From assembly GCA_040381235.1 (NCBI GenBank), contig JBEIHS010000013.1, forward strand, positions 1 through 28,202: a stretch of 28,202 nt of DNA, read 5' to 3'. Of this stretch, positions 8,824-26,596 are shown piece by piece; within the stretch, counting starts at the first letter, position 1, and each line of letters begins with the position of its first letter. The stretch comes from Planctomycetaceae bacterium. Lineage in GTDB: Bacteria; Planctomycetota; Planctomycetia; Pirellulales; Pirellulaceae. The position numbers were made by a program, and so were the translations under genes. The notes under the pieces are model-generated. The model was not told where the DNA came from and did not search any database. It saw only the letters and a program-made list of their open reading frames with translations.

Positions 8824-10137
8824 ATGAGAATCGCGATCATCGGCACCGGTTACGTGGGACTCGTGACCGGCACGTGTTTGGCCGACAATGGAAACGATGT
8901 CGTTTGCGTCGATACGAATCAGGCGAAGATCGAAATGCTGCTGCAAGGCCGCGTGCCGATCTACGAGCCCGGATTGGCGGAACTCGTAGCCAGGAACGCG
9001 GCCGCCGGCCGGTTGCGGTTCACCACCACCTTGGCGGACGCCGTGGCCGAGGCGCAGCTGGTTTTCATCGCGGTTGGCACGCCTCCCGCCGCCGACGGCA
9101 GCGCGGACTTGTCGTTCGTTTGGCAAGTGATTGACAGCCTGGCGCCGCACCTGGCGGCCGACGCGATCGTGGTGCTGAAGAGCACGGTGCCGGTCGGCAC
9201 GAACGCGACGGCCAATGCGCGGCTCAAGGAACTGACGGGCCGCGATTGCGACGTCGCCAGCAATCCCGAGTTCCTCAAGGAAGGCGCGGCGATCAACGAC
9301 TTCATGTATCCGGACCGCGTGGTCGTGGGGGTGCGGCGCCCGGCGGTCGGCGAGACGCTCCGAACGCTTTACTCGCCGCTGCTGCGGACCGGCCGGCCGT
9401 TTCTAGTCATGGCTCCGGAGAGCGCTGAACTGACGAAATATGTGGCCAATGCGATGTTGGCCACGAAAATCAGTTTCATCAACGAGATGGCGAACATCTG
9501 CGAGCGAGTGGGGGCCGATATCAACGAAGTCCGCCATGGCATCGGGCACGACCACCGCATCGGGTTCGCGTTCCTGTTCCCCGGGGTCGGGTACGGCGGC
9601 AGTTGTTTTCCGAAAGACGTGCGGGCGCTTGCTCAGAAGGCGCTCCAGGTGGGCGTCGCGCCGCGTATTTTGGACGCGGTCGAAGAGGTGAACGATCGGC
9701 AAAAGCACGTGCTGCTCGAAAAGATTCGCAGCCAGTACCCCGACGGAATCAGCGGGCTGACGTTCGCGGTCTGGGGGTTGGCATTCAAGCCGCGGACGGA
9801 CGACATCCGCGAGGCGCCGGCGCTGACGCTGATCACGGAGCTTTTGGCCGGCGGGGCCCGCCTGCAAGTCCACGATCCGGAAGCGGCCGAGCGGGTTCGG
9901 GAGCAATTCGGCTCGGCCTTGGTTTACGCCGCCACGCCGCTCGAAGCGCTCGAAGGGGCCGACGCGTTGGCGATCAACACGGAATGGAGCGAATTCCGCA
10001 GTGTGGACCTGCATGAGATGCGGCGGCGGATGAAGTCGGCGGTGATTTTCGACGGCCGAAACCTCTACGAGCCGACGCTCGCCCGCGACGCCGGCTTCGT
10101 CTACCACTCGATCGGCCGCGGCATCGCGCGTCCTTAA
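8824..10137 (+). CDS. ugd: UDP-glucose 6-dehydrogenase (UDP-glucose/GDP-mannose dehydrogenase family)
   Basis: [30 protein letters not shown] (NAD Rossmann fold), catalytic GGSCFPKD, and C-terminal UDP-binding region [13 protein letters not shown]. It starts 3 nt after the previous stop. Confidence 0.92.
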
Positions 10138-10277: not shown

Positions 10278-10343
10278 CGCGCCGCCGCGCCGGACTGGAA
10301 GTCCGGCGTACGCGCCGCCGCGCCGGACTGCAAGTCCGGCGTA
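10278..10343. repeat. Two tandem 33-bp units, each forming a 9-bp-stem hairpin; candidate bidirectional terminator or REP-like element
   Basis: The unit cgcgccgccgcgccggactg(g/c)aagtccggcgta occurs twice (10278-10310 and 10311-10343) with one mismatch. Each holds cgccggact-NNN-agtccggcg (10288-10308 and 10321-10341). The units lie between the convergent ugd and methyltransferase genes. There is no U-tract. Confidence 0.85.
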
Positions 10344-10402
10344 CGCAGTGAAGCGAGCGACGATAACACGCCCGCTCGGAGGTACGCGTCTCGATGTCGG
10401 TG

Positions 10403-11170
10403 TCAATTGCCGTGGACGCTGGCACTGCGGAGATGGCGGACCCAGGCGGGCGGGAAATTGGCCAAGACCGTGGCCCGGGCCGAATGGTGCGCGGCGATCA
10501 ATTGGCCCATCGTTTGATCGACGGCGCGGATGCGGGCCGAATCCCGGCCCAGCGTCGCCAACCGCCGCAACGGACGGATGTACGCGTACTCGAAGTAGCT
10601 CAACGTGCCGCCCGGCTTGAGCAATCGCCGGTAGCTGGCGACGACATCGCGGGCCGCCTCGGGCGGGAAGTTCACATGCGGCAGGCCAGAGATGATGAAA
10701 TCGTAGCCGCCACCCGCATGCTCCTCGGCGAAACGCTCGAGCGGCGTTTCATGGATCGCCAACGCGGCGGGCGCGTCCCGCCACGCTGGCTCGACGGCCG
10801 CTCGCCGCCGCAGCTCCGCGGCAAAGAGTGGATTGAGCTCGACGACATCCAGACGATCGCCCGCTCGCAGCAGCCGGAGAATCCGTCCCGTGAAGGCCCC
10901 AGTGCCGGCGCCGCATTCCAGAACCCGAAGCGAACCGCGGCCGTCGCCGCCCGCGGCCGCGTTGCCGCCCGCGGCCGCGTCGCCGCCCGCGGCCGAGTCG
11001 CCGCCGGTTCGCTCCTGTGCCAAACGCCGAGTGATTTCCAGCGCCAGGAACGGGCTGCTCGGCGCGATCGAACCTGTGTCACGGAACCGCGCGCGAAACT
11101 GCCGCGCAAAGAGAGCCGCTCGACGCACGCCGTCCCACATCGTTGCTTCTCCCCAATTCTTCCCCGGCAA
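10403..11170 (-). CDS. Class I SAM-dependent methyltransferase, phospholipid N-methyltransferase-like (COG3963-type N-terminus)
   Basis: N-terminal FRDTGSIAPSSPFLALEIT resembles the (x)GAxxPSSxxLa signature of COG3963 enzymes. SAM motif I is VLECGAGTGAFTGRIL; later motifs are DFIISGLP and LKPGGTLSYFEY. A low-complexity insert, GGDSAAGGDAAAGGNAAAGGDG, is encoded by an 18-bp repeat at 10943-11005. Confidence 0.75.
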   Translation of the reverse strand: MPGKNWGEATMWDGVRRAALFARQFRARFRDTGSIAPSSPFLALEITRRLAQERTGGDSAAGGDAAAGGNAAAGGDGRGSLRVLECGAGTGAFTGRILRLLRAGDRLDVVELNPLFAAELRRRAAVEPAWRDAPAALAIHETPLERFAEEHAGGGYDFIISGLPHVNFPPEAARDVVASYRRLLKPGGTLSYFEYAYIRPLRRLATLGRDSARIRAVDQTMGQLIAAHHSARATVLANFPPAWVRHLRSASVHGN

Positions 11171-11205: not shown

Positions 11206-12174
11206 TTAAGCGACCCCTCTCGCCATGCCGGCGACCGACTCGTCTTCGACCGACTCGTCTTCGATCGACTCGTCTTCGACCGACTCGACGGATTCTCCGT
11301 TCATCGCCATTTGCGCGTCCGTGTCGGCAGGCCGAAGGCCCGCGGCGCCGCTGGCGGCGTGACGGTGGGCCGACGCTGGCCAACCGACGGTCTGCGGAGC
11401 GCGTTGTGGAAAGAACGACTCCAGGACCATTTCGCCCGATAAGTGCTCGACCAGCGCCGTGCAGTTCTCGACCCAGTCGCCGATGTTGACGTACACCGAC
11501 GAGTCGCCCAGGCCGGTGACTCCTGGCGCATGGATGTGGCCGCAGATCACTCCGTGGCAATGGCGATCCCGAACGTATTGTTCCAGCCGCCGTTCGAAGT
11601 GGCTGAAGAACCGCGCGATCGACTTGACGCGGTTTTTGATATAGGCGCACCAGGCGTAAGGACTGGTCGCCGCCCCGGCCATCCGGTTGAACAGCCAATT
11701 GGCGTAGAGCAGCGGTTCGTACAAATAAGTCAAACCGACCGAGAGCCATTGATGGCGCTGTTCGACACAGTCGAACTTGTCGCCATGCAACGCCAGGAAC
11801 CGGCGGCCATCCAGCATTTCAATCACGAATTCATCGCGGATCGTCACATCCAGTCCGCTCTTTTCGATGAACCCGAGCACTGCCGGGTTGCGGAGGAAAT
11901 AGTCGTGGTTGCCGGGAGCGTAATAGATCTCGGTGCCGCGTTCGGCCAGCGAGAACAGCCGCTGCATGATCCCGGAGTAGGTCGCGTTCCAACGCCAGCC
12001 GGCGCGGAGCTTCCATCCGTCGAGAAAGTCGCCCAGGATAAACAATTGCTCGGGACGCACTCCGCGCAAATAGGCGAGAAAATTCTCGGCTTGCGCGTAG
12101 CGGCATCCCAAATGCACATCGCTGACAATCAGCGTGCGGACGCTACGTTCCTGAGCTTTCGGGTCGATGTCCAT
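11206..12174 (-). CDS. Calcineurin-like metallophosphoesterase of the LpxH/PlcP type (possible lipid-remodelling phospholipase C) with an acidic repeat tail
   Basis: Motifs: LIVSDVHLG, ILGDFLDGWKLRAGWRW, APGNHD, LHGDKFD, ICGHIHAP. The GDxxDxW...WxW pattern looks more like PlcP than LpxH (GDLFExWIGDD). The C-terminal (EDESV/I)n tail is encoded by 15-bp repeats at 11233-11292. The start overlaps the upstream GT gene by 32 nt. Confidence 0.8.
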   Translation of the reverse strand: MDIDPKAQERSVRTLIVSDVHLGCRYAQAENFLAYLRGVRPEQLFILGDFLDGWKLRAGWRWNATYSGIMQRLFSLAERGTEIYYAPGNHDYFLRNPAVLGFIEKSGLDVTIRDEFVIEMLDGRRFLALHGDKFDCVEQRHQWLSVGLTYLYEPLLYANWLFNRMAGAATSPYAWCAYIKNRVKSIARFFSHFERRLEQYVRDRHCHGVICGHIHAPGVTGLGDSSVYVNIGDWVENCTALVEHLSGEMVLESFFPQRAPQTVGWPASAHRHAASGAAGLRPADTDAQMAMNGESVESVEDESIEDESVEDESVAGMARGVA

Positions 12175-13492
12175 GAAGCCCTCGATGGCTGGAAAGTAAC
12201 TGCTCGCCCGGACGCGCTGGCGACGCCGCCGGCGCTTCCTTGCCGCGGACGCGCGGGCGAGTAACGAAAGACGTTGCGCGGAAACCGCTCACCAGCGCGC
12301 CGACAACGCCGGACGCCAGACGGTTTCGCCGGCGGGAGGCGGGGCCTTCCGCGTGAAACCGCGCGATGGTTTGTTCGTAGTGTTCGCGAACCCGTTCGAC
12401 CGAGCGGTCCCAGCCCCACGGCTCGACCGCCGCGCGGGCGCCCGCCGCCAGGCTGGCTCGATAGGTTTCGTCGGCCAGGAGCGGGGCGAGCACGCGGGCG
12501 GCGTCGGCCGCGTCGCGGGGCGTGTAGAGGAGCCCGTCGACACCGTCCCGGACAAGGCTCGGGATGCCGCCAGCTCGCGGCGCGACGACCGCCAGTCCGG
12601 CCGCCATCGCCTCCAGGATCACGTTTCCCATCGTTTCCGTTTCCGACGCGTAGACAAAGCCGTCCGCCGAGGCGTAAGCCGCGGCCAATTCGGCCCCGCG
12701 GAGATACCCCAGAAACTTCGTTCGGGTGCCCGCGAACAGCCGCTCGAGCTCCGACCGCTGCGGTCCATCGCCGACGATCGCCAATCGCACGCCATCGTGG
12801 CCCGCCGCCGGCAACCGCCGCATCAATTCGGCCAGGAATCCGACATTCTTCTCCGGCGCTAGCCGCGACACGGTGATCAGAACCCGGTCCTCGGGATGGC
12901 CATCCGTCAGTCGCGCCCGCATCGCCGCATCCCGCCGGCCGGGCGAAAACAGTTCGCAATCGACAGCCGGCGGCCACAATTCCACACGCTCGAAACCGGC
13001 CTTGGCCAGATCGTCCCGCATGATCGTCGAAACGGTCAGATTGCGGTCGGCTTGGTTATGATAGGAACGGGTCAGCCACCATAGCAGCCGCGACATCAAT
13101 GCCATGCCCGGATACTGCTTTACAAATTCGCCGTATAGCGTATGGAACGAAAACAGCTGCGGCAGCCGCTGCCGATACCGCGATAGCCAGTCATGGCATT
13201 GGAAGCCAAAGGCGAAAGGGTTCAGAAAGTGGACAATATCGGGTTGGAACGCGTCAACCGTTTCATAAAGCGAGCGATCGGGGACGCCAATGCGGTATTC
13301 GGGATACGAAGGGCAGGGAAATGACGGAAAGGCGGTCATCGGCACGGGCGAGTCGACGCGGCCGTCGGACCGCGGGCACACGACCATCACCTCATCGCCG
13401 CGGTTCCGCAGATGCCGGATCAGATGCATGGTGCGATGCACCACGCCATCCACCTTCGGCAGATAGACCTCGGCGATGATCAATATGCGCAT
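12143..13492 (-). CDS. GT4-family glycosyltransferase, SqdX/SQD2/Agt-like (diacylglycerol glycosyl- or glucuronosyl-transferase candidate)
   Basis: MRILIIAEVYLPKVDGVVHRTMHLIRHLRNRGDEVMVVCP closely mirrors the SqdX-type N-terminus (E.FLPKVDG.V.R). The E-x7-E region is ASETETMGNVILEAMAAGLAVVAPRAGGIPSLV. I chose ATG 13492; the track ORF starts at 13531. Confidence 0.88.
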   Translation of the reverse strand: MRILIIAEVYLPKVDGVVHRTMHLIRHLRNRGDEVMVVCPRSDGRVDSPVPMTAFPSFPCPSYPEYRIGVPDRSLYETVDAFQPDIVHFLNPFAFGFQCHDWLSRYRQRLPQLFSFHTLYGEFVKQYPGMALMSRLLWWLTRSYHNQADRNLTVSTIMRDDLAKAGFERVELWPPAVDCELFSPGRRDAAMRARLTDGHPEDRVLITVSRLAPEKNVGFLAELMRRLPAAGHDGVRLAIVGDGPQRSELERLFAGTRTKFLGYLRGAELAAAYASADGFVYASETETMGNVILEAMAAGLAVVAPRAGGIPSLVRDGVDGLLYTPRDAADAARVLAPLLADETYRASLAAGARAAVEPWGWDRSVERVREHYEQTIARFHAEGPASRRRNRLASGVVGALVSGFRATSFVTRPRVRGKEAPAASPARPGEQLLSSHRGLHGHRPESSGT

Positions 13493-13537
13493 CGAAAGCC
13501 ATCCTGTCCTGTAAAGGTTCCGTCCGTCCATTCAATT

Positions 13538-13607
13538 GTGGCGGAGTCTGGGTGGCGGAGTCTGGGTGGGGGAGACTGAGTGGCGGAGTCTGGGTGGCGG
13601 GGCTCAG
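13538..13607. repeat. 14-bp tandem repeat x5 in the gap between the methyltransferase and GT4 genes
   Basis: gtggcggagtctgg occurs at 13538, 13552 and 13580. Degenerate copies are gtgggggagactga (13566) and gtggcggggctcag (13594). The last copy covers the methyltransferase stop (13604-13606). The array ends 46 nt upstream of GT start 13492. Confidence 0.9.
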
Positions 13608-14473
13608 TCGCCGTCGCCGCGTTCGGGCGAGCCGTCTTCGTAGGGGGACTCGCCCGGCGACGGCTTTCGGCCCAGGGCCACCACGATCCGATGGGAATCG
13701 GAGATCGGGAAAACCCACAAATTGAAGAACGTTCGCAGCGCTTTTCCCGCTTGATGCAAACGCAGCTGTTCGATGAACGGTGTCAACCAGGCTCCGCGCC
13801 ACGCGAATGCCATGAAGGCGTCGAAGTCGGCGAAATCGAGTCGCGGCGCGAACGTTTCGGCCGATTGGACCCGGAACGAATGTTCCCGCATCACCGATTC
13901 GACGGCCGATTGGTCGAACGGCGTCTTTAAGTTGCCAAGGTCGAGTTCGCGGCCGCCATGCAGCCGGCGGATCAGCGGCGACCGGGCCACTCGACGCAGT
14001 TCCGGAAATCCTTGGCTGGTTCCGCCCACAAACGACCAATAGCCGCCTGGCTTGAGCCGCCGATGGACTTCCGGGGCGAGCACGCTGATCGGCACGAAGC
14101 CAGTGATGAAATGCGTGCATATCAAATCGAATTGGCAATCCGGAAAGTGCCGTCCCAAGTTGGCGGCGTCGTCGCGAGCGACCCGTAAATCGGGAATCCG
14201 CGTCTTGGCCACCTCCAGCATCCGCTCGGAGATATCAAGTCCATGAGGCCGGATCGGCAGTCGCGAGGCGGATCGGAGGCGTTCGCAAAAGACGCCTGTG
14301 CCAATACCCACATCGAACACATCGAGCGGACCGGAGGAGGTCCGTTCGAGTTCCGCGGCGGCGAGATGTCCTAGCGCCATTCCGAGCGCGTTTGTGGTGA
14401 CTTGCAAAGGATCGAGATCGTAATGCGGTGCGATGATCTCGTCGTACTGGCGTTGGATATCCGTGTTCATCAT
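13604..14473 (-). CDS. Class I SAM-dependent methyltransferase
   Basis: Motif I: LDVFDVGIGTGVFCERL. Post-I: GLDISERMLEVA. Motif III-like: RLKPGGYWSFVG. Homology begins near MMNTDIQRQYDEIIAPHYD, so I chose ATG 14473. The track ORF runs to 14659. Confidence 0.8.
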   Translation of the reverse strand: MMNTDIQRQYDEIIAPHYDLDPLQVTTNALGMALGHLAAAELERTSSGPLDVFDVGIGTGVFCERLRSASRLPIRPHGLDISERMLEVAKTRIPDLRVARDDAANLGRHFPDCQFDLICTHFITGFVPISVLAPEVHRRLKPGGYWSFVGGTSQGFPELRRVARSPLIRRLHGGRELDLGNLKTPFDQSAVESVMREHSFRVQSAETFAPRLDFADFDAFMAFAWRGAWLTPFIEQLRLHQAGKALRTFFNLWVFPISDSHRIVVALGRKPSPGESPYEDGSPERGDGD

Positions 14474-14711
14474 GGTCGGATCGGGGCCGCGGGAACGCGA
14501 AATGGCGAAGGACACCGGCCGAAGCTTCGTGCTCGGCTGGCGAGAATGTCGTCGCCGTCCTCTATGACTTTGATGAAAGAAAGTTGAAATCTCGCTACAT
14601 GATTTGGCGGAAACTCCGCATCTTCGCCTCTCCAAAAATTCATCGTGCCCGCTGACCATTCACGCCGCTGGGTCCAACGGATGCCCGGCAGTTCACGGCT
14701 GGGAGCGGCGA
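14474..14711. promoter_or_regulatory. Divergent intergenic/promoter region between the two lipid-gene operons
   Basis: A 238-bp gap separates the inferred starts 14473 (-) and 14712 (+). It has a locally AT-richer core at about 14562-14607 (ctatgactttgatgaaagaaagttgaaatctcgctacatgatttgg). GGGAG lies 6 nt before ATG 14712. I could not call a specific operator. Confidence 0.5.
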
Positions 14712-16241
14712 ATGGTCAATGCGGAATACGACTTCGACGTGATCGTCATTGGCGGCGGCGCGGGCGGCGCGGCGTTCGCCTCGGCGTGTGCCGCCGCTGG
14801 CAAGAGTGTGTTGATCGTCGAACGCGGGCCGAGGACGGCGGGCGAGCCGCAGCCGCGGGGCGAGCGGCAGACGCTGGTCGAAAAACTGCCCTACGACGAC
14901 CGGGCCATTGAAGTCAATGAAGCGCCGCTGCGGTTATTCATGGGCGGAATTCTCGGCGGTGGAACGGCCGTGTATGGCGCGGCCATGCTGCGGCCCAGCC
15001 GCGACGATTTCACTCCGGGACGACACTACGGCACGCTGCTGGAACGACCGCTGTGGGACTGGGTCGTCTCGTACGAGCAACTCGAACCGTTCTACGACGA
15101 GGCCGAGGAACTGTTTCAGTTGGCCAGCAGCCATGAGGACGATTTTGGACCGCTCGAACGGCCGAAAAGCCGCCAAAACGCTTCACTGTTGCCGCTCGCT
15201 CCCATCAATCAGCGGCTGATCGCCCGCAACCGCGAGCATGGTTTGCGTCCCTTCCGTCTACCGCTCGCGATCGACACGCAGCGGTGCGAGCGGTGTTCGG
15301 CCTGCGCTGGCTTTCTCTGCCCGAACGGCGCCAGGCGATCGGCGGCCGCCGTGATTCAGGAACTCGCCGAGCGCCACCGCGTGCACGTCATGGTCAATGC
15401 CGAAGTCGAGCAGTTGCTGCTCGCCCCGGGCGGCCCTCGCGCGGCGCGGAACGAAGGCGGCGTGCGGGGCGTGGTGATCCGGGATCGCCGCACGCAATCG
15501 ACGGCTACGTATCGTGCTCGTTGCTACGCCCTGGCGGCCGGCGCGATCGCCTCGCCGGCGATCGCGCTCAAGTCGGGCTTCGACGGGCCGCATGTCGGCC
15601 GCAATTACATGATGCATTACTCGCCGTTGGCCGCCGGCGTGTTCGCGAAGCCGACGGGCGGCGACGAGTCTTTCATCAAGCAGGTCGGGTTCGCGGATTT
15701 TTACTTCGGCACGCCGGAATTCCAGCGAAAGATGGGCATCGTCCAGTCGCTGCCCGTGCCCGGTCCGCTGATGCTGCGCAAGACGGGAATGCGCCGCTGG
15801 CCGGCGGGACTGGTCGGCTCGCTGCGTCGCCGCCTGCTGCCGCTCGTGGGGATTGTCGAGGATCTTCCCGATCCGCGGAATCGCGTGTTTCTCAAAGAGT
15901 CGGGCACGATCGCCCTGGCGCATCAGTTCAGCCGTTTCGATCGGCTGCGCGGCAAGTTTCTCGCCAAGGCGATGCGGCGGGTGTTGCGACGGGCCGGCGC
16001 CGTGATCCGGCTGACGAAGCAGTTCCCGTCGCAAGAGCACGTCGCGCACCAGTGCGGCACCCTGCGGATGGGCGCCGATCCGCGGACGGCTGCGGTCGAT
16101 GCCGACTGCCGGATGTTCGGCGCGCCGAATCTGTACGTCGTCGATGGCAGCGTCCTGCCGACATCGCTGGGCGTTGGCCCCTCGTTGACGATTGTCGCCA
16201 ACGCCTTGCGGGTCGCGCGGATCGCATGCCGCGACGCGTAA
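14712..16241 (+). CDS. GMC-family FAD-dependent oxidoreductase (gluconate-2-dehydrogenase / glucoside-3-dehydrogenase-like branch)
   Basis: N-terminal FAD fold: YDFDVIVIGGGAGGAAFASACAAAGKSVLIVERG. C-terminus: HQCGTLRMGADPRTAAVDADCRMFGAPNLYVVDGSVLPTSLGVGPSLTIVANALRVA. I chose ATG 14712 (MVNAEYDF...); the track ORF starts at 14604. Confidence 0.88.
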   Translation: MVNAEYDFDVIVIGGGAGGAAFASACAAAGKSVLIVERGPRTAGEPQPRGERQTLVEKLPYDDRAIEVNEAPLRLFMGGILGGGTAVYGAAMLRPSRDDFTPGRHYGTLLERPLWDWVVSYEQLEPFYDEAEELFQLASSHEDDFGPLERPKSRQNASLLPLAPINQRLIARNREHGLRPFRLPLAIDTQRCERCSACAGFLCPNGARRSAAAVIQELAERHRVHVMVNAEVEQLLLAPGGPRAARNEGGVRGVVIRDRRTQSTATYRARCYALAAGAIASPAIALKSGFDGPHVGRNYMMHYSPLAAGVFAKPTGGDESFIKQVGFADFYFGTPEFQRKMGIVQSLPVPGPLMLRKTGMRRWPAGLVGSLRRRLLPLVGIVEDLPDPRNRVFLKESGTIALAHQFSRFDRLRGKFLAKAMRRVLRRAGAVIRLTKQFPSQEHVAHQCGTLRMGADPRTAAVDADCRMFGAPNLYVVDGSVLPTSLGVGPSLTIVANALRVARIACRDA

Positions 16242-16264
16242 CCCTTCGACCATTTCCACGAACC

Positions 16265-17206
16265 ATGAAACCGGCCCGAGATTGCCTCGAACGAGACCCT
16301 ACCGGAACCATGCATAGCACAGATACAGACGCCCGTCGGGAAGAGTGGCGGCAAGCCCGGCAGATTCATGGAGGCACTTGGGGACTGTGCCTCGCGTCTT
16401 TGGGAGTGCGGCTGTCGCGATTGCCGATTCCCTCCCGCGGCCTGCGGGAACGCGTCTTTCGAACCGTTTATGGCCGCAAGTACCGCGCGCTCGACGAAAC
16501 GGAACTTGACCGGCCGCTCGCCGACTTCCGCTCGTTCAACGAACTGTTCACGCGCGGCGTCCGGCCGGAATGCCGTCCCATCGACCGCGAAAGCCCGGGG
16601 CTGGTCGCCCCGTGCGACGCTGAAGTCCAGGATGTCGGCACGCTCCGCGGCGATACGTTGCTCACGGTGAAAGATATCGCCTACCCGCTCGATGCGCTCC
16701 TGCCCGGCATGGACAACACGGCGCTCGTCGGCGGTCAATTCGCCATCCTGTTCCTCTCGCCAGCCGACTGTCATCGCGTGTTCGCGCCGGCCGCCGGCGA
16801 GGTGCGGTCGATCGCGCATGTTCCCGGACGGCGCCTGCTGGTTCATCCGCCGTATCAACGTCCCGAGTTCCCCGTATTCACCCTGAATGAGCGTTTGGTG
16901 ATTCGCGTCGCGACCGCGCAGGGCGAGTACGCGCTCGTGATGGTCGCCGGTTGGGGCGTCGGCCATATCACGCATCCGCCGGGCGTGTTGTCGGCGTGGA
17001 GCGATCGCCGACTTTCCCGCCATCATGTGACGCGGCTCGACCAACCCCCCAATGCCCGCATCGAACGCGGCCAGTGGATCGCGACCTTCGAACTCGGTTC
17101 GACCGTCGTCTTGATCACCGCGCGGGCGTTGCAGGCGACGCCGCGAGTCGCCGCCGGCCAACGTGTCATTTACGGCCGGCCGCTGTTCGGCATGGAGCCG
17201 GCCTGA
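16265..17206 (+). CDS. psd: Phosphatidylserine decarboxylase-family proenzyme (pyruvoyl-dependent decarboxylase)
   Basis: This is the C-terminal third of track ORF 15284..17206. Motifs: FNELFTRGVRPECRPI, LVAPCDAEV, FLSPADCHRVFAP, TLNERLV, VMVAGWGVGHI. The self-cleavage motif is FELGSTVV, with Gly-Ser codons at 17096-17101. Start is ATG 16265 (24 nt after the GMC stop) or ATG 16310. Confidence 0.85.
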   Translation: MKPARDCLERDPTGTMHSTDTDARREEWRQARQIHGGTWGLCLASLGVRLSRLPIPSRGLRERVFRTVYGRKYRALDETELDRPLADFRSFNELFTRGVRPECRPIDRESPGLVAPCDAEVQDVGTLRGDTLLTVKDIAYPLDALLPGMDNTALVGGQFAILFLSPADCHRVFAPAAGEVRSIAHVPGRRLLVHPPYQRPEFPVFTLNERLVIRVATAQGEYALVMVAGWGVGHITHPPGVLSAWSDRRLSRHHVTRLDQPPNARIERGQWIATFELGSTVVLITARALQATPRVAAGQRVIYGRPLFGMEPA

Positions 17207-19030
17207 TGACCGCCCCGCTTATCGCCATCGCGGCGACTCCGGAACGCCAAGCGCTGCTGGACAGCGCCCTCGCCACTTGGTGCCAGACGCTCGGCGGGGG
17301 ATCGACCGGGCGACGCGTTGTCGTGGCTTGGCTGCCCGACGAGCCATCGCAGCTGCGGCAGCTAATGCAGCGCATGCGGGCGAGCGCCCCGCAGCACGTG
17401 CCGCTGCACGCGCCGTCCGGCGACGACGATTTCGCAGCGCGTCTGCAAGCTGGATTGCGAGCCGGATTGCCAGCCGGATCGGAGAGAGACTCGCGCCGTG
17501 ACGTGCGCCATGACTTGCCAAAAGACGCGCGAACAGACGTGCCAGTTGATGTGCCGACTGATGTGCCGACTGATGTGCCGACTGATGTGCCAACGGAGCG
17601 GCCGCGGGTTGTGCTGATCGGCTCGGCGCGTGCGTACGAGCACTCGGCGCGGGACCGTCTGGAAATGTCGCTTGTGGAAAGTCTCCGTGACGGTGCGGCG
17701 GCGGTGCGGTTGTTGCGTGTGGGCGAAGTGTTATCGGCCAAGTTTGGCTTGCCGCGGAGGTTCGCGCGGCGCGTGGCTTGGCGGTCGTTCGCTGTTTCGC
17801 AGCGCCAGGATTGCTTTCCGACGGCGGCCGAACTGATTGCGGCGGTGTCCAAGTTGCTTGCCGGCGAGGGTCCCTGGTTTCGCGAACAGGCGTTGCTGGG
17901 ACGACGTCGCACAGCCGGCGAAGCGCTGGAAGAGTACGTGCGCGAAGCGGCCGCTGGCGGCACATCCGTTCCCGAACGTCCGTTGTCCCGAGGCTTGGGG
18001 CGGCTATCGCGATGGTTTCGCGCGGGGCCGAAGGCGGCCGGCGCCACGACCGCGCATGCACCGCTTCAGCCTGCCGACACGCGACGGCTCCTTGCGCTTT
18101 GCGGCACGTTCAATCGACCCCACGTGGCGCTCGCGGGATTCAACACCGGCGTGAATCATTTCGGCTGGCGATATCCGGGCAAGACGGTCGTCCAGACCCT
18201 GCAAACCGGAAAACGCATCCGCGTCCGCGGCGCCATCCTGGAGGCTGACGCCGGCGTGCTGATCAAAGACGCCGTCGCCGCTTTGCGACAAGCGGGGTGT
18301 GAATTCCTCGTGCTGCCGAACTATTCCTACGTCAGCTTGGGAACCGTGTTCATGGTGCCGGTCCATGGCTCGGGCTGCGAAGTCTCGACGCTTGGGGAAA
18401 CGATCGTCAAGGCGTTGGTCTACGATCCGGCGACCGATCGGATTGTTCGCGTCCGTCGCGGCGACAGCCAGTTCGACCGCTGGATGTACAACCCGGAGAG
18501 CGGCGTGGTGGTGCTGCGGTTGTGGTTCCGCGTGCGGCCCCGCTTTCGCTATTTTCGGCAACAACGCACGCTCGCCGCGCCATCCGCCGCCGAGCTGTGG
18601 AATGCGTTTCGCGACCCCGATGCCAGCCATATCGAAGCTCGCAAGCAACGCGCGGCCGACCGGCACGTGAGCCTCTACCGCTATCGGCTTGACGCCGACG
18701 GACTCGGCGGACCGGCCGAGGAGCTGCCGCGGGACACAATCGGCCGGGTGTGGGACCGGATCGAGCGGAACCGAGTCGCCGCCACGCTGTTCCACGCCTT
18801 TGTCCGCAATTTTGGATTCCATGTCGAACTGTTTCTGAACGAGGCGGAATTCGCCCGGTTTTGGGAACATCATCGCGGTCTGCCGCTCGCGAAAATGCAG
18901 TTCCGGCTGGCGCGGCGCGATGGACTGCCCCACTCCCCCTGCGGCGATTGCGACCGCATGTCGATCGATCTGTTCATGAGTCGCCGGCGCAGCGCCCGGT
19001 TCCTCGCTTTCGTCAAGGAACATCTGCCCC

Positions 19031-21765
<2,735 letters not shown>

Positions 21766-21778
<13 letters not shown>

Positions 21779-21799
21779 GGAGTAGGGAGTAGGGAGTGG
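21766..21799 (+). repeat. Heptamer repeat (GAGTAGG) x4.7 covering the aminotransferase stop codon; (G3N4)3G3 pattern on the + strand
   Basis: gagtagg is repeated from 21766. GGG tracts sit at 21771-73, 21778-80, 21785-87 and 21792-94, separated by AGTA. Stop TAG at 21776-21778 lies inside the repeat. Confidence 0.9.
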
Positions 21800-22076
21800 A
21801 ACGCTGGCCGAAAGTTGTTGGTATGGACAATGTGTGACGAGATGTTGTTGTCGAAATGAAATCATGAATTGCAATAGCGATGCCATAAGTCGAAATCATT
21901 TAGTCAATCAGCATGAAGGACTTGCGGTCGGTCGTCAGTCGCACTCGCTACAGAGCGATGACCGCAGATAGCGGCAGGCTTCAGCCTGGGATGCTACTAG
22001 GCCATGATGACAGGCTATAAATGCCTAGTACAAACCGACCCCATGCGATTCGGGAATCACGACCATTCGCGAACAC

Positions 22077-22224
22077 CGACAACCGACAACGGACAACGGA
22101 TAACTGATTACCCACAACCCGCAACCCGCAACCCGCAACCCGCAACCCGCAACCCACAACCCGTAACCCGCAACCCGCAACCGACAACTGCCAACTGCCA
22201 ACTGCCAACTGCCAACTGACAACC
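22077..22224. repeat. About 21 contiguous heptamer units (CGACAAC > CGCAACC > GCCAACT variants) ending 17 nt upstream of the next ATG; G3N4 periodicity on the minus strand
   Basis: cgacaac cgacaac ggacaac ggataac tgattac, then (c[ag]caacc) x10 at 22113-22182, then gacaact (gccaact)x4 gacaacc up to 22224. C3 tracts recur every 7 nt from 22111 to about 22178, giving (GGGTTGC)n on the minus strand. Confidence 0.92.
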
Positions 22225-22241
22225 ACCTCTGGCTTCTCTCC

Positions 22242-22733
22242 ATGCCCTCATTTCAAATCAATTTCACTGAACTGTACCGGCGCCATTTGTGCCGTCACTC
22301 CGAGTGGGGCATTAACGTCTGGCATCTTATGGCCGTGGCGGGGATTTATCTGGCATTGCTGGCGCTAGTCAGGTTGGCTCCCGGCGCCATATGGATCGTC
22401 GGGGCCGGTTCGGCGGCGTATCTGGGGTTGTTGGCGGTCACAGTGCCGTTGCGGGTTTGGCTCGCGTGCGCGGCGGTGGTGGCGGCGTTGGCAGCGGCGG
22501 CGTTCTACTTGCCGGAAGCGCCGTGGTGGTTGCCGCCGATCGTGTTTCTGGCGTTGCACCGCTTCCAAGTTTGGCAACATCGCGTCTACAGCCGCTCGTA
22601 CGACATGACGGAGTTTGCCGGAAAGTATCGAAAAGGGCCGAAGCTGGCGTTGCTGCTGGCGGTGTACGAGCTGCCGATTTTGCTCAACTATCTAGTGTTC
22701 GCCGACGCGCAAGAGCGCGTGCCGCAGGCCTGA
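22242..22733 (+). CDS. Hypothetical small integral membrane protein (3-4 predicted TM segments)
   Basis: 163-aa ORF with hydrophobic stretches (LMAVAGIYLALLALV; IWIVGAGSAAYLGLLAVTV; LACAAVVAALAAAAFYL; LALLLAVYELPILLNYLVF) and His-rich polar segments (YRRHLCRHSEWGINVWH; LHRFQVWQHRVY). I recognised no family with confidence. Confidence 0.6.
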   Translation: MPSFQINFTELYRRHLCRHSEWGINVWHLMAVAGIYLALLALVRLAPGAIWIVGAGSAAYLGLLAVTVPLRVWLACAAVVAALAAAAFYLPEAPWWLPPIVFLALHRFQVWQHRVYSRSYDMTEFAGKYRKGPKLALLLAVYELPILLNYLVFADAQERVPQA

Positions 22734-22740
22734 GGAGCGG

Positions 22741-22844
22741 CATGGGACGTCGGCATGGGACGTCGGCATGGGACGTCGGCATGGGACGTCGGCATGGGAC
22801 GTCGGCATGGGACGTCGGCTCGGGACGTCGGCTCTGGATGTCGG
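22741..22844. repeat. 13-bp tandem repeat x8 (6 perfect, 2 degenerate) in a convergent intergenic gap
   Basis: catgggacgtcgg occurs at 22741, 22754, 22767, 22780, 22793 and 22806, followed by ctcgggacgtcgg (22819) and ctctggatgtcgg (22832). Each unit carries the palindrome GACGTC. The array lies between stop 22733 (+) and stop 22853 (-). Confidence 0.92.
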
Positions 22845-22852
22845 CCAAGAGA

Positions 22853-23188
22853 TCAGCCGCGGTCGCCGGTCGCGATATCGATGGCGCCGAGCGTGCGGAG
22901 GACGGGCAGGACGAAGATCTTGCCGTCACCCATGCGGCCGGTGCGGGCGACTTCGACCACTTTGCGGATGACTTCCTCCAGGCGGGCGTCATCGACCCAA
23001 AGGGTGATTTCGACCTTGGGGAGGAAGGCGAGCGAATACTCGGAGGGGCCGTACTCGCTGAGATAGCTTTTTTGCCGCCCGTAGCCTTTCACCTCGCCGA
23101 CGCTGAGTGCTTCGATGGGGGCCCGTTTGAGGCTTTCGAGCACCTTTTCGGCCAGGTACGGCTTGACGATCGCGACGACCTGCTTCAC
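22853..23188 (-). CDS. P-II family nitrogen regulatory protein (GlnB/GlnK-like)
   Basis: 111 aa. MKQVVAIVKPYLAEKVLESL ... VGEVKGYGRQKSYLSEYGPSEY (T-loop with Tyr at the GlnB Tyr51-equivalent spacing) ... ARTGRMGDGKIFVLPV (B-loop). Confidence 0.9.
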   Translation of the reverse strand: MKQVVAIVKPYLAEKVLESLKRAPIEALSVGEVKGYGRQKSYLSEYGPSEYSLAFLPKVEITLWVDDARLEEVIRKVVEVARTGRMGDGKIFVLPVLRTLGAIDIATGDRG

Positions 23189-23228: not shown

Positions 23229-23621
23229 TTAGCTGAAGAAGTTCACGCCGAACAGGTTGAACTCGGGCGAGCTTTCGACTTCGATGTCGCCATTGACCTG
23301 GGTCATGCAGGCCAGCCGCATTTCCTTTTCGTGGCCGATGTACATCAGGCACACGGGGACCGGTTCGGGCACCGGCACGTAGAATTTGAATTTTTCGCGG
23401 AGCGTCAACGGGTTGGTGTTTTCCATCCCCTTCTTGATCAGCACCCGGCAGGTGCCGCACGTGCCCATGCTCTGGCAATTGACGAACTTGTTGATCGAGG
23501 CTCCGACCCCGTTCACGCCACAGTTGAGGTTGATGCCCGCCTTGACCGCCTCTTCGCGGAGCCACGCTCCCTGGGGCACTTCGATTTCCTTTTTTTCCTT
23601 CAGGAATTTGATGATCGGCAT
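23229..23621 (-). CDS. (2Fe-2S) ferredoxin-like protein
   Basis: 130 aa from ATG 23621, with AGGTGA 5-6 nt upstream. The Cys pattern CQSMGTCGTCRV ... RLACMTQV resembles plant-type C-x4/5-C-x2-C...C ligands on a beta-grasp-like sequence (IEVPQGAWLREEAVKAGINL). The rest of track ORF 23229..24098 is non-coding-looking. Confidence 0.72.
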   Translation of the reverse strand: MPIIKFLKEKKEIEVPQGAWLREEAVKAGINLNCGVNGVGASINKFVNCQSMGTCGTCRVLIKKGMENTNPLTLREKFKFYVPVPEPVPVCLMYIGHEKEMRLACMTQVNGDIEVESSPEFNLFGVNFFS

Positions 23622-23787
23622 GGGAATCACCTGGTTTGCTTCGTCGACCGAACGTCCGGCATATCGTAGTCGGGTGCCAAGTGGTCTGTCCAGTCGCCCA
23701 AGCTGATGACCGATCGAGTACAATTCTTCGTCCTCATCCGGCCGTGGGCCGCCGCCTGTGCGGGCCCAGCCGCAGTTGGCCGATGCG

Positions 23788-23823
23788 GCGGCAGGTGTGG
23801 CGGCAGGTGTGGCGGCAGGTGTG
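23788..23823. repeat. 12-bp tandem repeat x3 in the ferredoxin/metG divergent region
   Basis: gcggcaggtgtg occurs at 23788, 23800 and 23812, followed by gctgggagggcggg. The array ends 26 nt before the metG ATG at 23850. Confidence 0.9.
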
Positions 23824-25996: not shown

Positions 25997-26596
25997 ATGT
26001 TGGACCGCGCGGCCCGGCGGCTGGTCGACCCATGGCTCGAACTGCCGGCCGCGTGGCTGGTCCGCGGGGGCGTGTCGGCGTCGACGGTGACGATCGCCGG
26101 TTTCGCGCTGGGACTGGCGGCTTGCGGGGCGCTGGCTTGCCGCGAGTATGGCTGGGCGCTGGGACTGATTGTCGCGAACCGCGTCGCGGACGGACTGGAT
26201 GGGGCGGTGGCGCGTCGCACGGCCGCCACCGACTGGGGCGGTTTTCTTGATTCCGTGTGCGACACGGTGTTTTACGCCTCGGTGCCGCTTGGATTCGCTA
26301 TCGGTGTTCCCGAACAGTGGCTGCCCGCATTCTGCTTGACTCACAGTTTCTCGGGCACAGGCGGTTCGTTTTTAACGTTGGCCATCCTGTTGGCGAAACG
26401 CGGCACGAACAGTGTGAAGGCGTTTCCCTACCATCGGGGACTGATGGAGGGGACGGAGACGATCGCGTTCTTTGTCGCTTTTTGTCTCGCGCCGACGTGG
26501 TTCGCGCCGCTCGCTTGGACCTTCACGGCGCTCTGCTGGCTGACCACCGCTATCCGGATCGCGATGGCCAGCCAAGCGCTGCGCGTCACGTGTTAA
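25997..26596 (+). CDS. CDP-alcohol phosphatidyltransferase family protein
   Basis: ADGLDGAVARRTAATDWGGFLDSVCDTVFY fits D-G-x2-A-R-x8-G-x3-D-x3-D. There are several TM segments. It starts 14 nt after the metG stop. Substrate specificity cannot be read from the sequence. Confidence 0.85.
   Translation: MLDRAARRLVDPWLELPAAWLVRGGVSASTVTIAGFALGLAACGALACREYGWALGLIVANRVADGLDGAVARRTAATDWGGFLDSVCDTVFYASVPLGFAIGVPEQWLPAFCLTHSFSGTGGSFLTLAILLAKRGTNSVKAFPYHRGLMEGTETIAFFVAFCLAPTWFAPLAWTFTALCWLTTAIRIAMASQALRVTC

Follow-up and report, generated by a model that had tools for sequence, protein, structure and literature searches.

The window, by which we mean the whole 28,202-nt stretch of planctomycete DNA that was analysed, carries a colinear core of five genes, encoding a GMC flavoprotein dehydrogenase (GMC), a pyruvoyl decarboxylase homologous to phosphatidylserine decarboxylase (PSD), a two-domain flavoenzyme-like protein (ORF3), a tandem class-III aminotransferase (AT) and a histidine-rich integral membrane protein (SMP). 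This core is separated by a divergent intergenic region from genes on the opposite strand (Table 1). An earlier note on this DNA had described a unit of four same-strand genes. All four, together with their three junctions, were found in the open reading frame listing and in the sequence at the positions given there, but the real unit consists of five colinear genes plus a class-I SAM methyltransferase (MT), the fifth conserved gene, encoding SMP, lying beyond the end of the stretch that had been described. The 238-bp length of the shared divergent region was correct, and Pfam searches confirmed that the opposite strand encodes two methyltransferases, a GT4 glycosyltransferase and a PlcP-like esterase.

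Table 1. Genes and intervals of the cluster in the window.
Feature	Position	Strand	Length	Basis or remark
UDP-glucose 6-dehydrogenase	8824-10137	+		Pfam/NCBIfam NDP-sugar dehydrogenase, 460 bits
Second class-I SAM methyltransferase, last in divergent operon	10403-11170	-	255 aa	Pfam Methyltransf_25
LpxH/PlcP-like metallophosphoesterase	11206-12174	-	322 aa, acidic repeat tail	Pfam Metallophos
GT4 glycosyltransferase	12143-13531	-	462 aa	Pfam Glyco_transf_4 + Glycos_transf_1
Class-I SAM methyltransferase (MT)	13604-14473	-	~290 aa from ATG 14473	Pfam Methyltransf_25/11
Divergent intergenic region	14474-14711		238 bp	Between MT and GMC
GMC flavoprotein dehydrogenase	14712-16241	+	509 aa	Pfam GMC_oxred_N/C; TAA 16239-16241
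PSD-family pyruvoyl decarboxylase (predicted)	16265-17206	+	313 aa	PF02666, TIGR00163
ORF3, predicted degenerate SDR + VAO-fold flavoenzyme	17206-19065	+	619 aa	Foldseek, weak FAD_binding_4
Tandem class-III aminotransferase (AT)	19031-21778	+	915 aa	Pfam Aminotran_3
Spacer AT to SMP	21779-22241		463 bp	7-, 14- and 21-nt tandem arrays throughout
SMP, His-rich integral membrane protein (predicted)	22242-22733	+	163 aa	Remote Mpo1/DUF962-like

The junctions of the core are tight. As had been noted, 23 nt separate the end of the GMC stop codon at 16241 from the PSD start codon at 16265, and the sequence TGATG at 17204-17208 holds the stop codon of PSD and the start codon of ORF3. Because these two codons share one base, ORF3 begins at 17206 and encodes 619 aa, which corrects the 620 aa originally given. 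At the third junction (19063-19069), the TGA at 19063-19065 and the two in-frame ATG codons at 19031 and 19067 are all present, and 19031 is the right start, since the resulting 35-nt ORF3/AT overlap is also called in four related loci (L002, L004, L005 and L006) and the public gene call for AT is the 915-aa product. Translational coupling through the one-base and 35-nt overlaps, the latter recurring in relatives, supports the view that these genes form a module. The gap between AT and SMP measures 15-290 nt in relatives, as compared with 463 bp in the window, and three in-frame tandem-repeat arrays lengthen AT. A PSD-ORF3 fusion protein (P0015) was encountered in a single case, in which an assembly frameshift across the overlapping stop and start codons is possible.

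The cluster is real and tightly conserved in about 80 planctomycete species. In the species-representative Planctomycetota genomes of GTDB, about 85 matched stretches reduced to 79 distinct loci, where GMC and PSD preceded ORF3 in this order in 62 of 62 loci and AT and SMP followed it in order in 63 of 64. MT was the most constant partner, being found alongside the core in 36 of the 38 wide loci. GT4 was present in 25 of these 38, every time beside MT, and was not adjacent to the core in the other 13 or in Isosphaeraceae; since it is missing beside the core in many loci, the core may act on something other than the sugar. A PlcP-like metallophosphoesterase was adjacent at ≥35% identity in 15 of the 38 wide loci, and homologues of the second methyltransferase occupied the same position in five related loci. 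In some Gemmataceae MT and GT4 share the transcriptional direction of the core, and in one Gemmataceae MAG the genes for GMC, PSD, ORF3, AT, SMP, MT and GT4 are all co-directional. The association proposed in the earlier note was thus borne out, with the genes staying adjacent in Pirellulales, Planctomycetaceae, Gemmataceae, Isosphaeraceae and Tepidisphaerales, and no profile search placed the gene set in any characterised pathway. Adjacency of the UDP-glucose 6-dehydrogenase gene did not hold (absent from 86 of 86 related loci), and this enzyme, a possible local supplier of UDP-glucuronate, does not belong to the conserved cluster. Cultured carriers include Singulisphaera acidiphila DSM 18658 (NC_019892.1, 5.13-5.15 Mb), Paludisphaera soli and Aquisphaera insulae. 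No description of the GMC-PSD-ORF3-AT-SMP gene set was found in the literature searched.

GMC matched the Pfam families GMC_oxred_N and GMC_oxred_C at 66.9 and 75.2 bits (cut-offs, 23 and 24.6). In agreement with its earlier assignment to the sugar-acting branch of the family, its nearest solved relatives are FAD-dependent glucose and fructose dehydrogenases, the closest being the FAD-glucose dehydrogenase of B. cepacia (E = 1e-24). An Fe-S-type motif, CxxCxxCxxxxCP, at residues 192-204 corresponds in the alignment to the Cys-rich stretch of FAD-glucose dehydrogenase, its four cysteines being retained in 68-69 of 70 orthologues, and the C-terminal catalytic His446 is conserved in 75 of 75. Judged by these features, GMC belongs to the Fe-S sugar-dehydrogenase branch, and an Fe-S cluster is predicted.

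ORF3 had been considered an orphan, but it belongs to a family for which 245 representatives were counted in a set of 1.84 billion proteins. It comprises an N-terminal alpha/beta domain of the degenerate extended-SDR type, a PTDV repeat insert and a C-terminal VAO-fold domain (residues 287-619). Foldseek comparison of its AlphaFold model (pLDDT 78.6, pTM 0.80) returned alditol oxidase (E = 1.6e-13), DprE1 and L-galactonolactone dehydrogenase as best matches, with E values of about 1e-13 and target TM scores of 0.5-0.6, corresponding to a two-domain VAO fold. The FAD_binding_4 match of ORF3 itself was weak (23.8 bits, below the Pfam cut-off of 26.4), whereas distant members of the family scored 31-50 bits, above the cut-off, and also exceeded the cut-off for PF01370 (Epimerase), retaining an intact SDR domain of the nucleotide-sugar type. 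The motif GxNxGVxHFG is invariant among orthologues. On sequence and model, ORF3 is a fusion of a degenerate SDR domain of the sugar type and a flavin domain resembling alditol oxidase and DprE1, with predicted use of FAD. A similar combination is found in the decaprenylphosphoryl-ribose 2'-epimerase of Mycobacterium, in which the VAO-fold flavoenzyme DprE1 carries out the oxidation of a hydroxyl on a sugar anchored to a lipid and works with an SDR partner, DprE2. In ORF3 both folds lie in one chain, and DprE1 ranks with its closest structural counterparts, but sequence identity is about 15%, planctomycete members of the family have a degenerate SDR half, and the keto product would here be aminated rather than reduced. 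The kinship of ORF3 to alditol oxidase and DprE1, like that of GMC to FAD-glucose and fructose dehydrogenases, supports chemistry on a sugar.

AT had been described as a double aminotransferase, and the two class-III domains are indeed real, but the first lacks the catalytic lysine. This N-terminal domain (approximately residues 50-480) is a degenerate class-III domain: all 22 PDB matches of its profile were class-III aminotransferases (best, PigE, E = 2e-4), and the lysine position is aligned to Glu, with Glu or Asp in all orthologues. An hhalign comparison of the N-terminal with the C-terminal half was not significant. The N-terminal domain is a pseudo-enzyme domain. The C-terminal domain (residues 521-891) is complete, matches Aminotran_3 at E = 2e-41 (142.6 bits), and has its Schiff-base lysine (residue 729, or 717 if numbered from the ATG at 19067) conserved in 75 of 76 orthologues; it is predicted to be an active class-III aminotransferase. 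As proposed earlier, it is of the PLP-dependent class III, specifically of the omega type, with PigE, YgjG and AcOAT as the nearest enzymes, and the omega-transaminases nearest to it interconvert aldehydes or ketones and amines. The AT model had a pTM of 0.81.

The PSD homologue matched PF02666 (PS_Dcarbxylase) at E = 2e-42 (145 bits) and scored 125.5 bits against TIGR00163, for which the cut-off is 111.75. Its placement in the pyruvoyl LGST family therefore stood: LGST occupies residues 277-280 and LGS(T/S) is found in 76 of 76 orthologues, D118, D168 and H170 are conserved in 72-76 of the 76, and S279 is also conserved, so that the equivalents of Asp90, Asp142, His144 and Ser254 of E. coli PSD (PDB 6L06/7CNW) are all kept. 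The phospholipid substrate implied by that family is improbable. In E. coli PSD, the phosphate of the substrate is held by hydrogen bonds from Tyr137 and Ser166, and family members have either Tyr or Arg at the first of these positions (PMC7952604). By contrast, these positions are occupied here by Phe163 (75 of 76 orthologues) and Leu192 (68 of 76), and the same loop has gained an invariant Arg and an invariant His. Because both phosphate-binding side chains have been replaced, the protein is a PSD-family enzyme but probably not a phosphatidylserine decarboxylase, and the combination of an intact catalytic set with their loss supports decarboxylation of a substrate other than a phospholipid.

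These replacements bear directly on the possibility that the cluster serves a phospholipid pathway, either by making phosphatidylethanolamine and phosphatidylcholine in an alternative way or by salvaging head groups. For example, the glycerol head group of phosphatidylglycerol could be oxidised and transaminated to serine and then processed by PSD and a PmtA-like methyltransferase. Membership of the PSD family, the top NCBIfam match of MT (the phospholipid N-methyltransferase PmtA, weak at 33.9 bits) and the reported presence of phosphatidylcholine among planctomycete lipids would fit, but we consider this explanation highly improbable. Besides the Phe and Leu substitutions, both flavoenzymes resemble enzymes acting on sugars or polyols, the neighbours described below are phospholipid-degrading enzymes and Pho-type genes, contrary to the making of more phospholipid, and the small number of loci found in GTDB species genomes argues against a housekeeping pathway.

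SMP is a predicted integral membrane protein, 46-52% identical to the product of the gene that follows AT in loci L001, L002 and L004, with four invariant histidines (H15, H19, H28 and H113). Fifteen of 28 members matched PF06127 (best E = 0.0018, none reaching 24 bits). The yeast 2-hydroxy-fatty-acid dioxygenase Mpo1 (DUF962) resembles SMP in its small size, multiple membrane passes and N-terminal histidines of the Y..H...H...N..H type, but every PF06127 match of SMP fell under the Pfam cut-off. The membrane character of SMP and a hydrophobic linker found in most ORF3 relatives together support a membrane location for the pathway.

A simple form of amino-glycolipid tailoring, along the lines of the earlier note, in which a flavoenzyme and AT would convert C-OH to C-NH2 on an intact ring and MT would methylate the amine, appears unlikely. 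PSD, the second flavoenzyme and SMP would then do unrelated jobs, such as the formation of ordinary phosphatidylethanolamine by PSD, which leaves unexplained why PSD, ORF3 and SMP are locked in order with GMC and AT, why stop and start codons overlap, and why neither phosphate-binding side chain survives in the PSD homologue. The attraction of such a scheme is its precedent: aminoglycoside 6'-amination is an established case of a GMC oxidase paired with a class-III aminotransferase, the PDB matches of GMC include 6'''-hydroxyparomomycin oxidase, and a protein ≥90% identical to GMC carries the NCBI automatic name '6-hydroxyparomomycin oxidase'. The score of the PSD homologue above the PSD equivalog cut-off is also consistent with it.

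On the opposite strand, the best NCBIfam matches of GT4 were lipid-acceptor GT4 enzymes, all under the cut-off, making it a candidate diacylglycerol glycosyltransferase, and the metallophosphoesterase matched the NCBIfam model for LpxH at 58 bits, below the cut-off. A plcP gene beside an agt-type glycosyltransferase gene is an established phosphate-stress arrangement (PMC4796936), and in the PlcP-Agt operons of Sinorhizobium, Agrobacterium, SAR11 and Phaeobacter, as in the window, the metallophosphoesterase adjoins GT4. Relatives of the window resemble these operons further in having Pho-regulon neighbours and Pho-box-like operators. PAP2 was found in 18 related loci, a lipase-like hydrolase in 16, PhoX in four and pstSCA in L004, and four 11-bp-phased TT(C/A)AC(A) units were detected in about 20 of 39 orthologous intergenic regions (z > 5), with 16 paired sites of 11-bp phasing observed against 1.1 expected. 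In the window, by contrast with the PlcP-Agt operons, no Pho-box-like array was seen in the 238-bp intergenic region, which also lacks a sigma-70-like match, and neither PhoX nor PAP2 was found in the window. The PAP2, lipase, PhoX and pstSCA genes and the Pho-box-like arrays of the relatives support a link to phosphate stress.

An alternative is that the enzymes modify an envelope glycan, lipopolysaccharide or a soluble sugar-derived metabolite and that the lipid-remodelling neighbours are merely co-regulated. GT4, SDR, GMC, VAO and class-III aminotransferase proteins are all frequent in glycan and natural-product pathways, LpxH-like esterases work in lipid A synthesis, and a third of the loci lack GT4. 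However, genes for sugar-nucleotide synthesis, flippases or polymerases did not recur across the 79 loci, the recurring neighbours instead being PAP2, lipase and PlcP-like genes, and SMP and the ORF3 linker point to the membrane. Considering also that the characterised bacterial PSD-family enzymes all act on lipids at the membrane (PMC7952604), we regard a non-lipid role as very unlikely.

From gene context and family resemblance, we judge the chances to be even that the cluster is a phosphate-stress module by which a diacylglycerol glycolipid is aminated, decarboxylated and N-methylated to give a membrane lipid free of phosphorus; the substrates and the order of the steps proposed here follow from the same considerations. 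The PlcP-like metallophosphoesterase would free diacylglycerol from phospholipid, with PAP2 and lipase joining in other lineages, and GT4 would glycosylate it in the manner of Agt. Two flavoenzymes presumed to work at the membrane, GMC with its Fe-S motif and ORF3 with its similarity to DprE1 and alditol oxidase, may then oxidise sugar hydroxyls to carbonyls, and AT may convert a carbonyl to an amine, its dead N-terminal domain perhaps substituting for a second subunit. The His-rich, Mpo1-like SMP would probably use oxygen to break a C-C bond or remove a carboxyl group adjacent to a hydroxyl, the PSD homologue would decarboxylate a phosphate-free alpha-amino-acid intermediate, and MT would methylate the amine. 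No such lipid is reported in the polar-lipid surveys of cultured planctomycetes that were consulted, which used ordinary media that were not phosphate-limited.

A more specific product, the betaine lipid DGCC (diacylglyceryl-O-CH(COO-)-O-CH2CH2N+(CH3)3) or a close carboxy-acetal relative, could arise by oxidative trimming of a diacylglycerol glucuronide, in a pathway common to Planctomycetota and haptophyte algae through the ORF3 family; we hold this to be quite unlikely. GT4 would form glucuronosyl-diacylglycerol, a flavoenzyme would oxidise C4 to give a beta-keto acid from which C6 departs as CO2, by chemistry of the ArnA/UXS kind, and AT would give a 4-amino-pentoside, as ArnB does. The other flavoenzyme would then generate a 3-ketone, and the Mpo1-like dioxygenase would split C2(OH)-C3(=O) into two carboxylates, yielding a 'phosphatidylserine' with a carboxy-acetal in place of the phosphate, which the PSD homologue would decarboxylate and MT would supply with three methyl groups. 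Such a route would use all seven conserved proteins, each once and with none missing, and would account for the lost phosphate contacts of the PSD homologue. The head group of DGCC is acetal-linked to glycerol, like a glycosyltransferase product, whereas the other two betaine lipids are ether-linked (PMC8379373). DGCC is considered a haptophyte marker (PMC7074452), and the tiny ORF3 family still includes proteins of the haptophyte Prymnesium parvum, in which DGCC-like lipids were reported (PMC13431280), the alga Pinguiococcus and a diplonemid. The C4-type nucleotide-sugar SDR domain retained by distant members of the family would also fit, and DGCC was reported from dark subsurface fluids in which eukaryotes are very scarce (PMC10667739). 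However, the route is chemistry on paper only, the ORF3 relatives in eukaryotes show just 20-27% identity and could serve a different pathway, the UDP-glucose dehydrogenase gene is not a conserved neighbour of the cluster, the Isosphaeraceae neighbourhood has no GT4, and no report of DGCC from any bacterium was found in the literature searched. According to a 2023 paper, nothing is known of DGCC synthesis (PMC10685587); if DGCC were the product, this open question would be addressed, and an algal biomarker lipid could be bacterial.

The phosphate-stress module proposed here shares its logic, from phospholipid via diacylglycerol to a phosphorus-free lipid, with the PlcP-Agt operons, but those end at MGDG/GADG or are paired with btaAB, and none has the GMC-PSD-ORF3-AT-SMP core. 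With BtaA/BtaB, which make DGTS, it would share an N-methylated, phosphorus-free diacylglycerol lipid formed under phosphate stress and a class-I SAM methyltransferase. Pfam and NCBIfam profile searches found no BtaA homologue in the window, and the nitrogen would come by transamination rather than from the aminocarboxypropyl group of S-adenosylmethionine. The sequence of oxidation, decarboxylation where relevant and transamination is also that of ArnA/ArnB, which convert UDP-glucuronate to UDP-4-amino-arabinose, and of NeoQ/NeoB-type pairs. Those systems use NAD- or oxygen-dependent enzymes on nucleotide sugars or aminoglycosides, whereas the oxidants here are an Fe-S GMC protein and a VAO-fold enzyme, probably acting on a lipid-anchored sugar. 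ArnB is a DegT-type aminotransferase, as opposed to the class-III enzyme of the cluster.

The replacement of phospholipids by phosphorus-free lipids is a major microbial means of coping with phosphate scarcity, for which the known bacterial routes lead to glycolipids (Agt/Pgt), DGTS (BtaAB) and ornithine-type lipids. The cluster constitutes a module of seven to eight proteins that has no characterised counterpart and is conserved in at least five planctomycete lineages. Its enzymological novelties are a PSD-family enzyme whose specificity has probably shifted away from phosphate, a tandem pseudo-enzyme/enzyme aminotransferase and a family of fused SDR-VAO flavoenzymes.

The window, with a G+C content of 58–70%, is planctomycetal, since it encodes a PVC-type haem protein and the relatives that we found all belong to Planctomycetota. 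An earlier note, made from sequence alone, had described in it an operon of four genes, encoding a GMC flavoprotein, a PSD homologue, an orphan 620-aa protein (ORF3) and a double aminotransferase. All four genes lie where that note had placed them, with the 23-nt gap and the TGATG overlap that it had read, but the overlap sets the ORF3 start at 17206 and hence its length at 619 aa. Both in-frame ATGs proposed for the aminotransferase are present; we take 19031 to be the true start, because gene calls in four relatives show an identical overlap of 35 nt and the public call for the contig is a 915-aa product. The divergent region proposed to face glycosyltransferase and methyltransferase genes was likewise confirmed, and two methyltransferases (the one next to GMC is termed MT), a GT4 glycosyltransferase and a PlcP-like esterase are encoded across it. 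Internal promoters and terminators were searched for, and none rose above chance level.

Features of the window and their coordinates
Feature	Position (nt)	Strand	Remark
PVC-type haem protein	5767–8820		family match; planctomycetal marker
UDP-glucose 6-dehydrogenase	8824–10137		adjoins the cluster in this genome only
33-nt unit ×2.1 (97% match)	10278–10346		between UDP-glucose dehydrogenase and second methyltransferase
Second methyltransferase	10403–11170	−
In-frame repeats	11232–11287, 17547–17591, 19064–19197, 19431–19516, 20136–20217		units of 9, 12, 15 and 36 nt
GT4 and LpxH/PlcP-like metallophosphoesterase			opposite strand to core
14-nt array	13538–13600		between GT4 and MT
MT	13604–14473	−
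MT–GMC gap			238 bp, divergent
GMC	14712–16241	+	first core gene
PSD homologue	16265–17206	+	23-nt gap after GMC
TGATG overlap	17204–17208		PSD stop/ORF3 start
Aminotransferase in-frame ATGs	19031 and 19067	+
ORF3 stop	19063–19065	+
GAGTAGG ×4.6 array	21766–21797		spans aminotransferase stop
Aminotransferase–SMP spacer			463 bp, packed with tandem arrays
ACCCGCA heptamer/14-mer arrays	22075–22224		in the spacer before SMP
SMP (163-aa membrane protein)	22242–22733		46–52% identity to counterparts in relatives
13-nt array	22738–22845		after SMP
P-II family protein	22853–23188	−	convergent to cluster
Small 2Fe-2S ferredoxin-like protein	23229–23801	−	convergent to cluster
CDP-alcohol phosphatidyltransferase (199 aa)	25997–26596		3 kb downstream of cluster, past methionyl-tRNA synthetase

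Tandem repeats occur both in and between the genes. Those in frame, within ORF3, the aminotransferase and the esterase, encode PTDV, DxPLDT, T/A-rich, SQAA and ESVED runs and map to low-confidence loops of the models; such repeats add about 200 aa to the aminotransferase, whose relatives measure ~700 aa. The spacers between the aminotransferase and SMP genes are much shorter in relatives than in the window. The 33-nt unit is G+C-rich and partly self-complementary.

A word-indexed search returned 36 relatives of ORF3, which is not an orphan: its family, in which SDR and VAO-fold domains are combined, has 245 cluster representatives in a set of 1.84 billion proteins. Scanning one genome per GTDB species with a profile yielded 79 distinct loci (80 kept), labelled Planctomycetota throughout save for a few MAGs, probably mis-binned, that are tagged Chitinophaga or Kuenenia. 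The full cluster, at 35–60% identity to the window, is found in L027 and L059, whose Chitinophaga sp. labels look like binning errors, and in L025 and L032, tagged Candidatus Kuenenia. Cultured carriers are Singulisphaera acidiphila DSM 18658, Singulisphaera sp. GP187, Paludisphaera soli and Aquisphaera insulae. When the loci were searched by tblastn with the window's proteins, a check proposed in the earlier note, GMC and PSD lay 5′ of ORF3 in conserved order in 62/62 loci, and the aminotransferase and a ~165-aa membrane protein, whose copy in the window is SMP, followed it in 63/64. The methyltransferase was present in 36 of the 38 loci with wide flanks, GT4 in 25/38 (adjoining the methyltransferase in 25/25) and a PlcP-like esterase of at least 35% identity in 15/38. 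Thus, the conserved unit exceeds the four genes first proposed and is strongly conserved. All seven genes, from GMC to SMP together with the methyltransferase and GT4, are co-directional in one Gemmataceae MAG. In Isosphaeraceae, GT4 is not adjacent and the methyltransferase is followed by a different metallophosphoesterase.

Several other genes adjoin the cluster. UDP-glucose dehydrogenase was rejected as a member, as it occurs in none of the other related loci; it could be a source of UDP-glucuronate for the window's GT4. The P-II family and ferredoxin-like proteins were not found in related loci, and the CDP-alcohol phosphatidyltransferase is a lipid head-group enzyme. An 888-aa protein from a Logan assembly (P0015) carries the PSD homologue and ORF3 in one chain, either as a true fusion or through a frameshift; we did not weigh it strongly, since such a fusion would also result from a one-base error at the overlapping stop/start.

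Clustering of the remaining ORFs in the loci revealed recurrent neighbours that point to phosphate stress. A PAP2 phosphatase (18 loci) and a lipase-like hydrolase (16 loci) are positioned between the esterase and GT4, PhoX lies immediately 3′ of the core in four loci, and pstSCA adjoins the cluster in L004. In about 20 of 39 loci, the MT–GMC intergenic region holds four TT(C/A)AC(A) units in 11-bp phase, an arrangement that we take to be PhoB/PhoP box architecture. Half-sites numbered 54 against 11 expected and phased pairs 16 against 1.1, and the arrays stood at z = 5–9 relative to shuffles; we regard the array as a candidate planctomycete Pho box. One example reads TTCGCGaatcaTTAACAaacacTTAACCggaagTTCTCA, and carriers include L055, L039, L025, L033, L053 and L058. 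Pho boxes adjoining plcP have been reported (PMC4796936). The MT–GMC region of the window has no such array, its best four-unit score being 7.0 versus 22–38 in relatives, and its closest relatives likewise lack one, so that the link to phosphate regulation holds for this genome by homology only.

Among solved structures, GMC is closest to the catalytic subunits of two enzymes, Burkholderia FAD-glucose dehydrogenase (E = 1e-24) and Gluconobacter fructose dehydrogenase, consistent with the sugar-acting branch named in the earlier note. Its CxxCxxCxxxxCP motif, kept in 68–69 of 70 orthologues, aligns with the Cys-rich Fe-S segment of these enzymes, and no signal peptide was found in GMC; its sequence suggests a dehydrogenase that belongs to the Fe-S, sugar-acting branch. 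A protein at least 90% identical to it (P0310, MEY4179226.1) is auto-named "6-hydroxyparomomycin oxidase" by NCBI and "choline dehydrogenase-like flavoprotein" by JGI, neither of which fits these relatives. The PSD homologue scores above the PSD equivalog cut-off, carries LGS(T/S) in 76/76 orthologues and retains the residues that correspond to E. coli Asp90, Asp142 and His144. The E. coli enzyme binds the phosphate of its substrate through Tyr137, Ser166 and the Val167 backbone, and a Y137F/S166A double mutant is badly impaired; across the family, 85% of members have Tyr at the Tyr137 position and 15% have Arg (PMC7952604). By contrast, the window's protein has Phe and Leu in place of the two side chains (conserved in 75/76 and 68/76 orthologues, respectively), and an Arg and a His are newly invariant in the phosphate-contact loop. 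Considering that the catalytic set is kept while both phosphate-contact side chains are replaced, our reading is that the protein is active as a pyruvoyl decarboxylase, on an amino-acid substrate that would not be phosphate-linked. A phospholipid (PE/PC) route is highly improbable, given the lost phosphate contacts and neighbours that degrade phospholipid.

The AlphaFold model of ORF3 (pLDDT 78.6, pTM 0.80), run as the earlier note had advised, predicts an alpha/beta domain at the N terminus and a VAO fold at the C terminus. In structural comparison it came closest to alditol oxidase, DprE1 and L-galactonolactone dehydrogenase (E ~1e-13), a tie barely visible in sequence-only searches. Distant family members exceed the Pfam cut-offs for the NAD-dependent epimerase/dehydratase family (extended SDR) and FAD_binding_4 and show the motifs TGxxGGIG and YxxxK; members of the planctomycete branch have a degenerate SDR half. 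An intact SDR half is kept by the bacterial relatives P0230, P0233 and P0239. This architecture recalls Mycobacterium DprE2 and DprE1, the decaprenylphosphoryl-ribose 2′-epimerase pair, joined in a single chain. Three distant representatives of this otherwise planctomycete family are eukaryotic, from the haptophyte Prymnesium parvum (P0303, KAL1529624.1), Pinguiococcus pyrenoidosus (P0304) and the diplonemid Namystynia (P0296), and share the layout of SDR, hydrophobic linker and VAO domain with intact SDR motifs. Their contigs are short and without neighbour genes, and an alignment search for eukaryotic relatives of the other core proteins gave, among the matches listed, Prymnesium-type ORF3 sequences.

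The double aminotransferase of the earlier note indeed has two class-III domains. The C-terminal half is a complete enzyme with its lysine, structurally nearest PigE, putrescine aminotransferase and acetylornithine/ornithine aminotransferases. In a profile search against the PDB, the N-terminal half matched class-III aminotransferases and nothing else; it has Glu or Asp at the lysine position, indicating a pseudo-enzyme domain, which probably takes the place of the second chain in the usual dimer. An internal duplication was not upheld, the two halves giving no significant hhalign match; homology of the N-terminal domain is shown solely by the PDB profile search. SMP is a four-helix membrane protein with invariant histidines and repeated, always sub-threshold, matches to Mpo1/DUF962, a family of iron-dependent 2-hydroxy-acid dioxygenases. 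Because the flavoenzymes are sugar/polyol-like and the aminotransferase omega-transaminase-like, ORF3 as a 2-hydroxy-acid dehydrogenase and a fatty-amine pathway (2-hydroxy acid to 2-oxo acid, 2-amino acid and amine) were both demoted to minor possibilities. MT was judged unlikely to be OlsG; in Singulisphaera, the cluster is situated at 5.13 Mb, presumably far from Sinac_1600, whose position we estimated.

No description of this gene set was found in the literature searched, and no solved or curated family ties the core proteins together. The supply part would be shared with PlcP-Agt operons, in which a PlcP-type esterase feeds diacylglycerol to GT4 (PMC4796936). In the cluster, the esterase, or PAP2 and the lipase, would supply diacylglycerol to GT4, the two flavoprotein dehydrogenases would oxidise hydroxyls on the lipid-anchored sugar and the aminotransferase would aminate one carbonyl. 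An alpha-amino acid would then arise and be decarboxylated by the PSD-type enzyme, SMP being a probable membrane dioxygenase, and the amine would be methylated. We infer every substrate, and give this sequence on a lipid anchor an even chance. A non-lipid glycan or metabolite pathway is very unlikely in our estimation.

Pyruvoyl decarboxylases require a free alpha-amino acid, which on a glycoside arises only by ring opening. Simple amino-glycolipid tailoring with the ring intact is an unlikely alternative, leaving unexplained both why PSD, ORF3 and SMP keep so fixed a synteny and why the PSD pocket is altered. Quite unlikely too, and paper chemistry, is a scheme using each conserved protein exactly once, in which oxidative trimming of glucuronosyl-diacylglycerol would yield the betaine lipid DGCC. 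C4 would be oxidised and C6 lost as CO2, transamination would give a 4-amine, C3 would be oxidised and a dioxygenase would split C2–C3, giving diacylglyceryl-O-CH(COO-)-O-CH2-CH(NH3+)-COO-; decarboxylation of this ring-opened product by the PSD homologue and three methylations would complete DGCC. The scheme fits the acetal-linked head group, which DGCC alone among betaine lipids possesses (PMC8379373), the ORF3 relative in a haptophyte, haptophytes being the classic DGCC producers (PMC8379373, PMC7074452, PMC13431280), and the DGCC reported from dark subsurface fluids with few eukaryotes (PMC10667739); its synthesis has been stated as not known (PMC10685587). The earlier note's idea of an undescribed head-group system, with an aminated and possibly N-methylated glycolipid or aminolipid as its putative product, came through the comparative tests that the note had proposed, with several details corrected. 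The cluster, whose enzymatic core is without a characterised counterpart, is probably a variant of phosphate-stress lipid-remodelling clusters.
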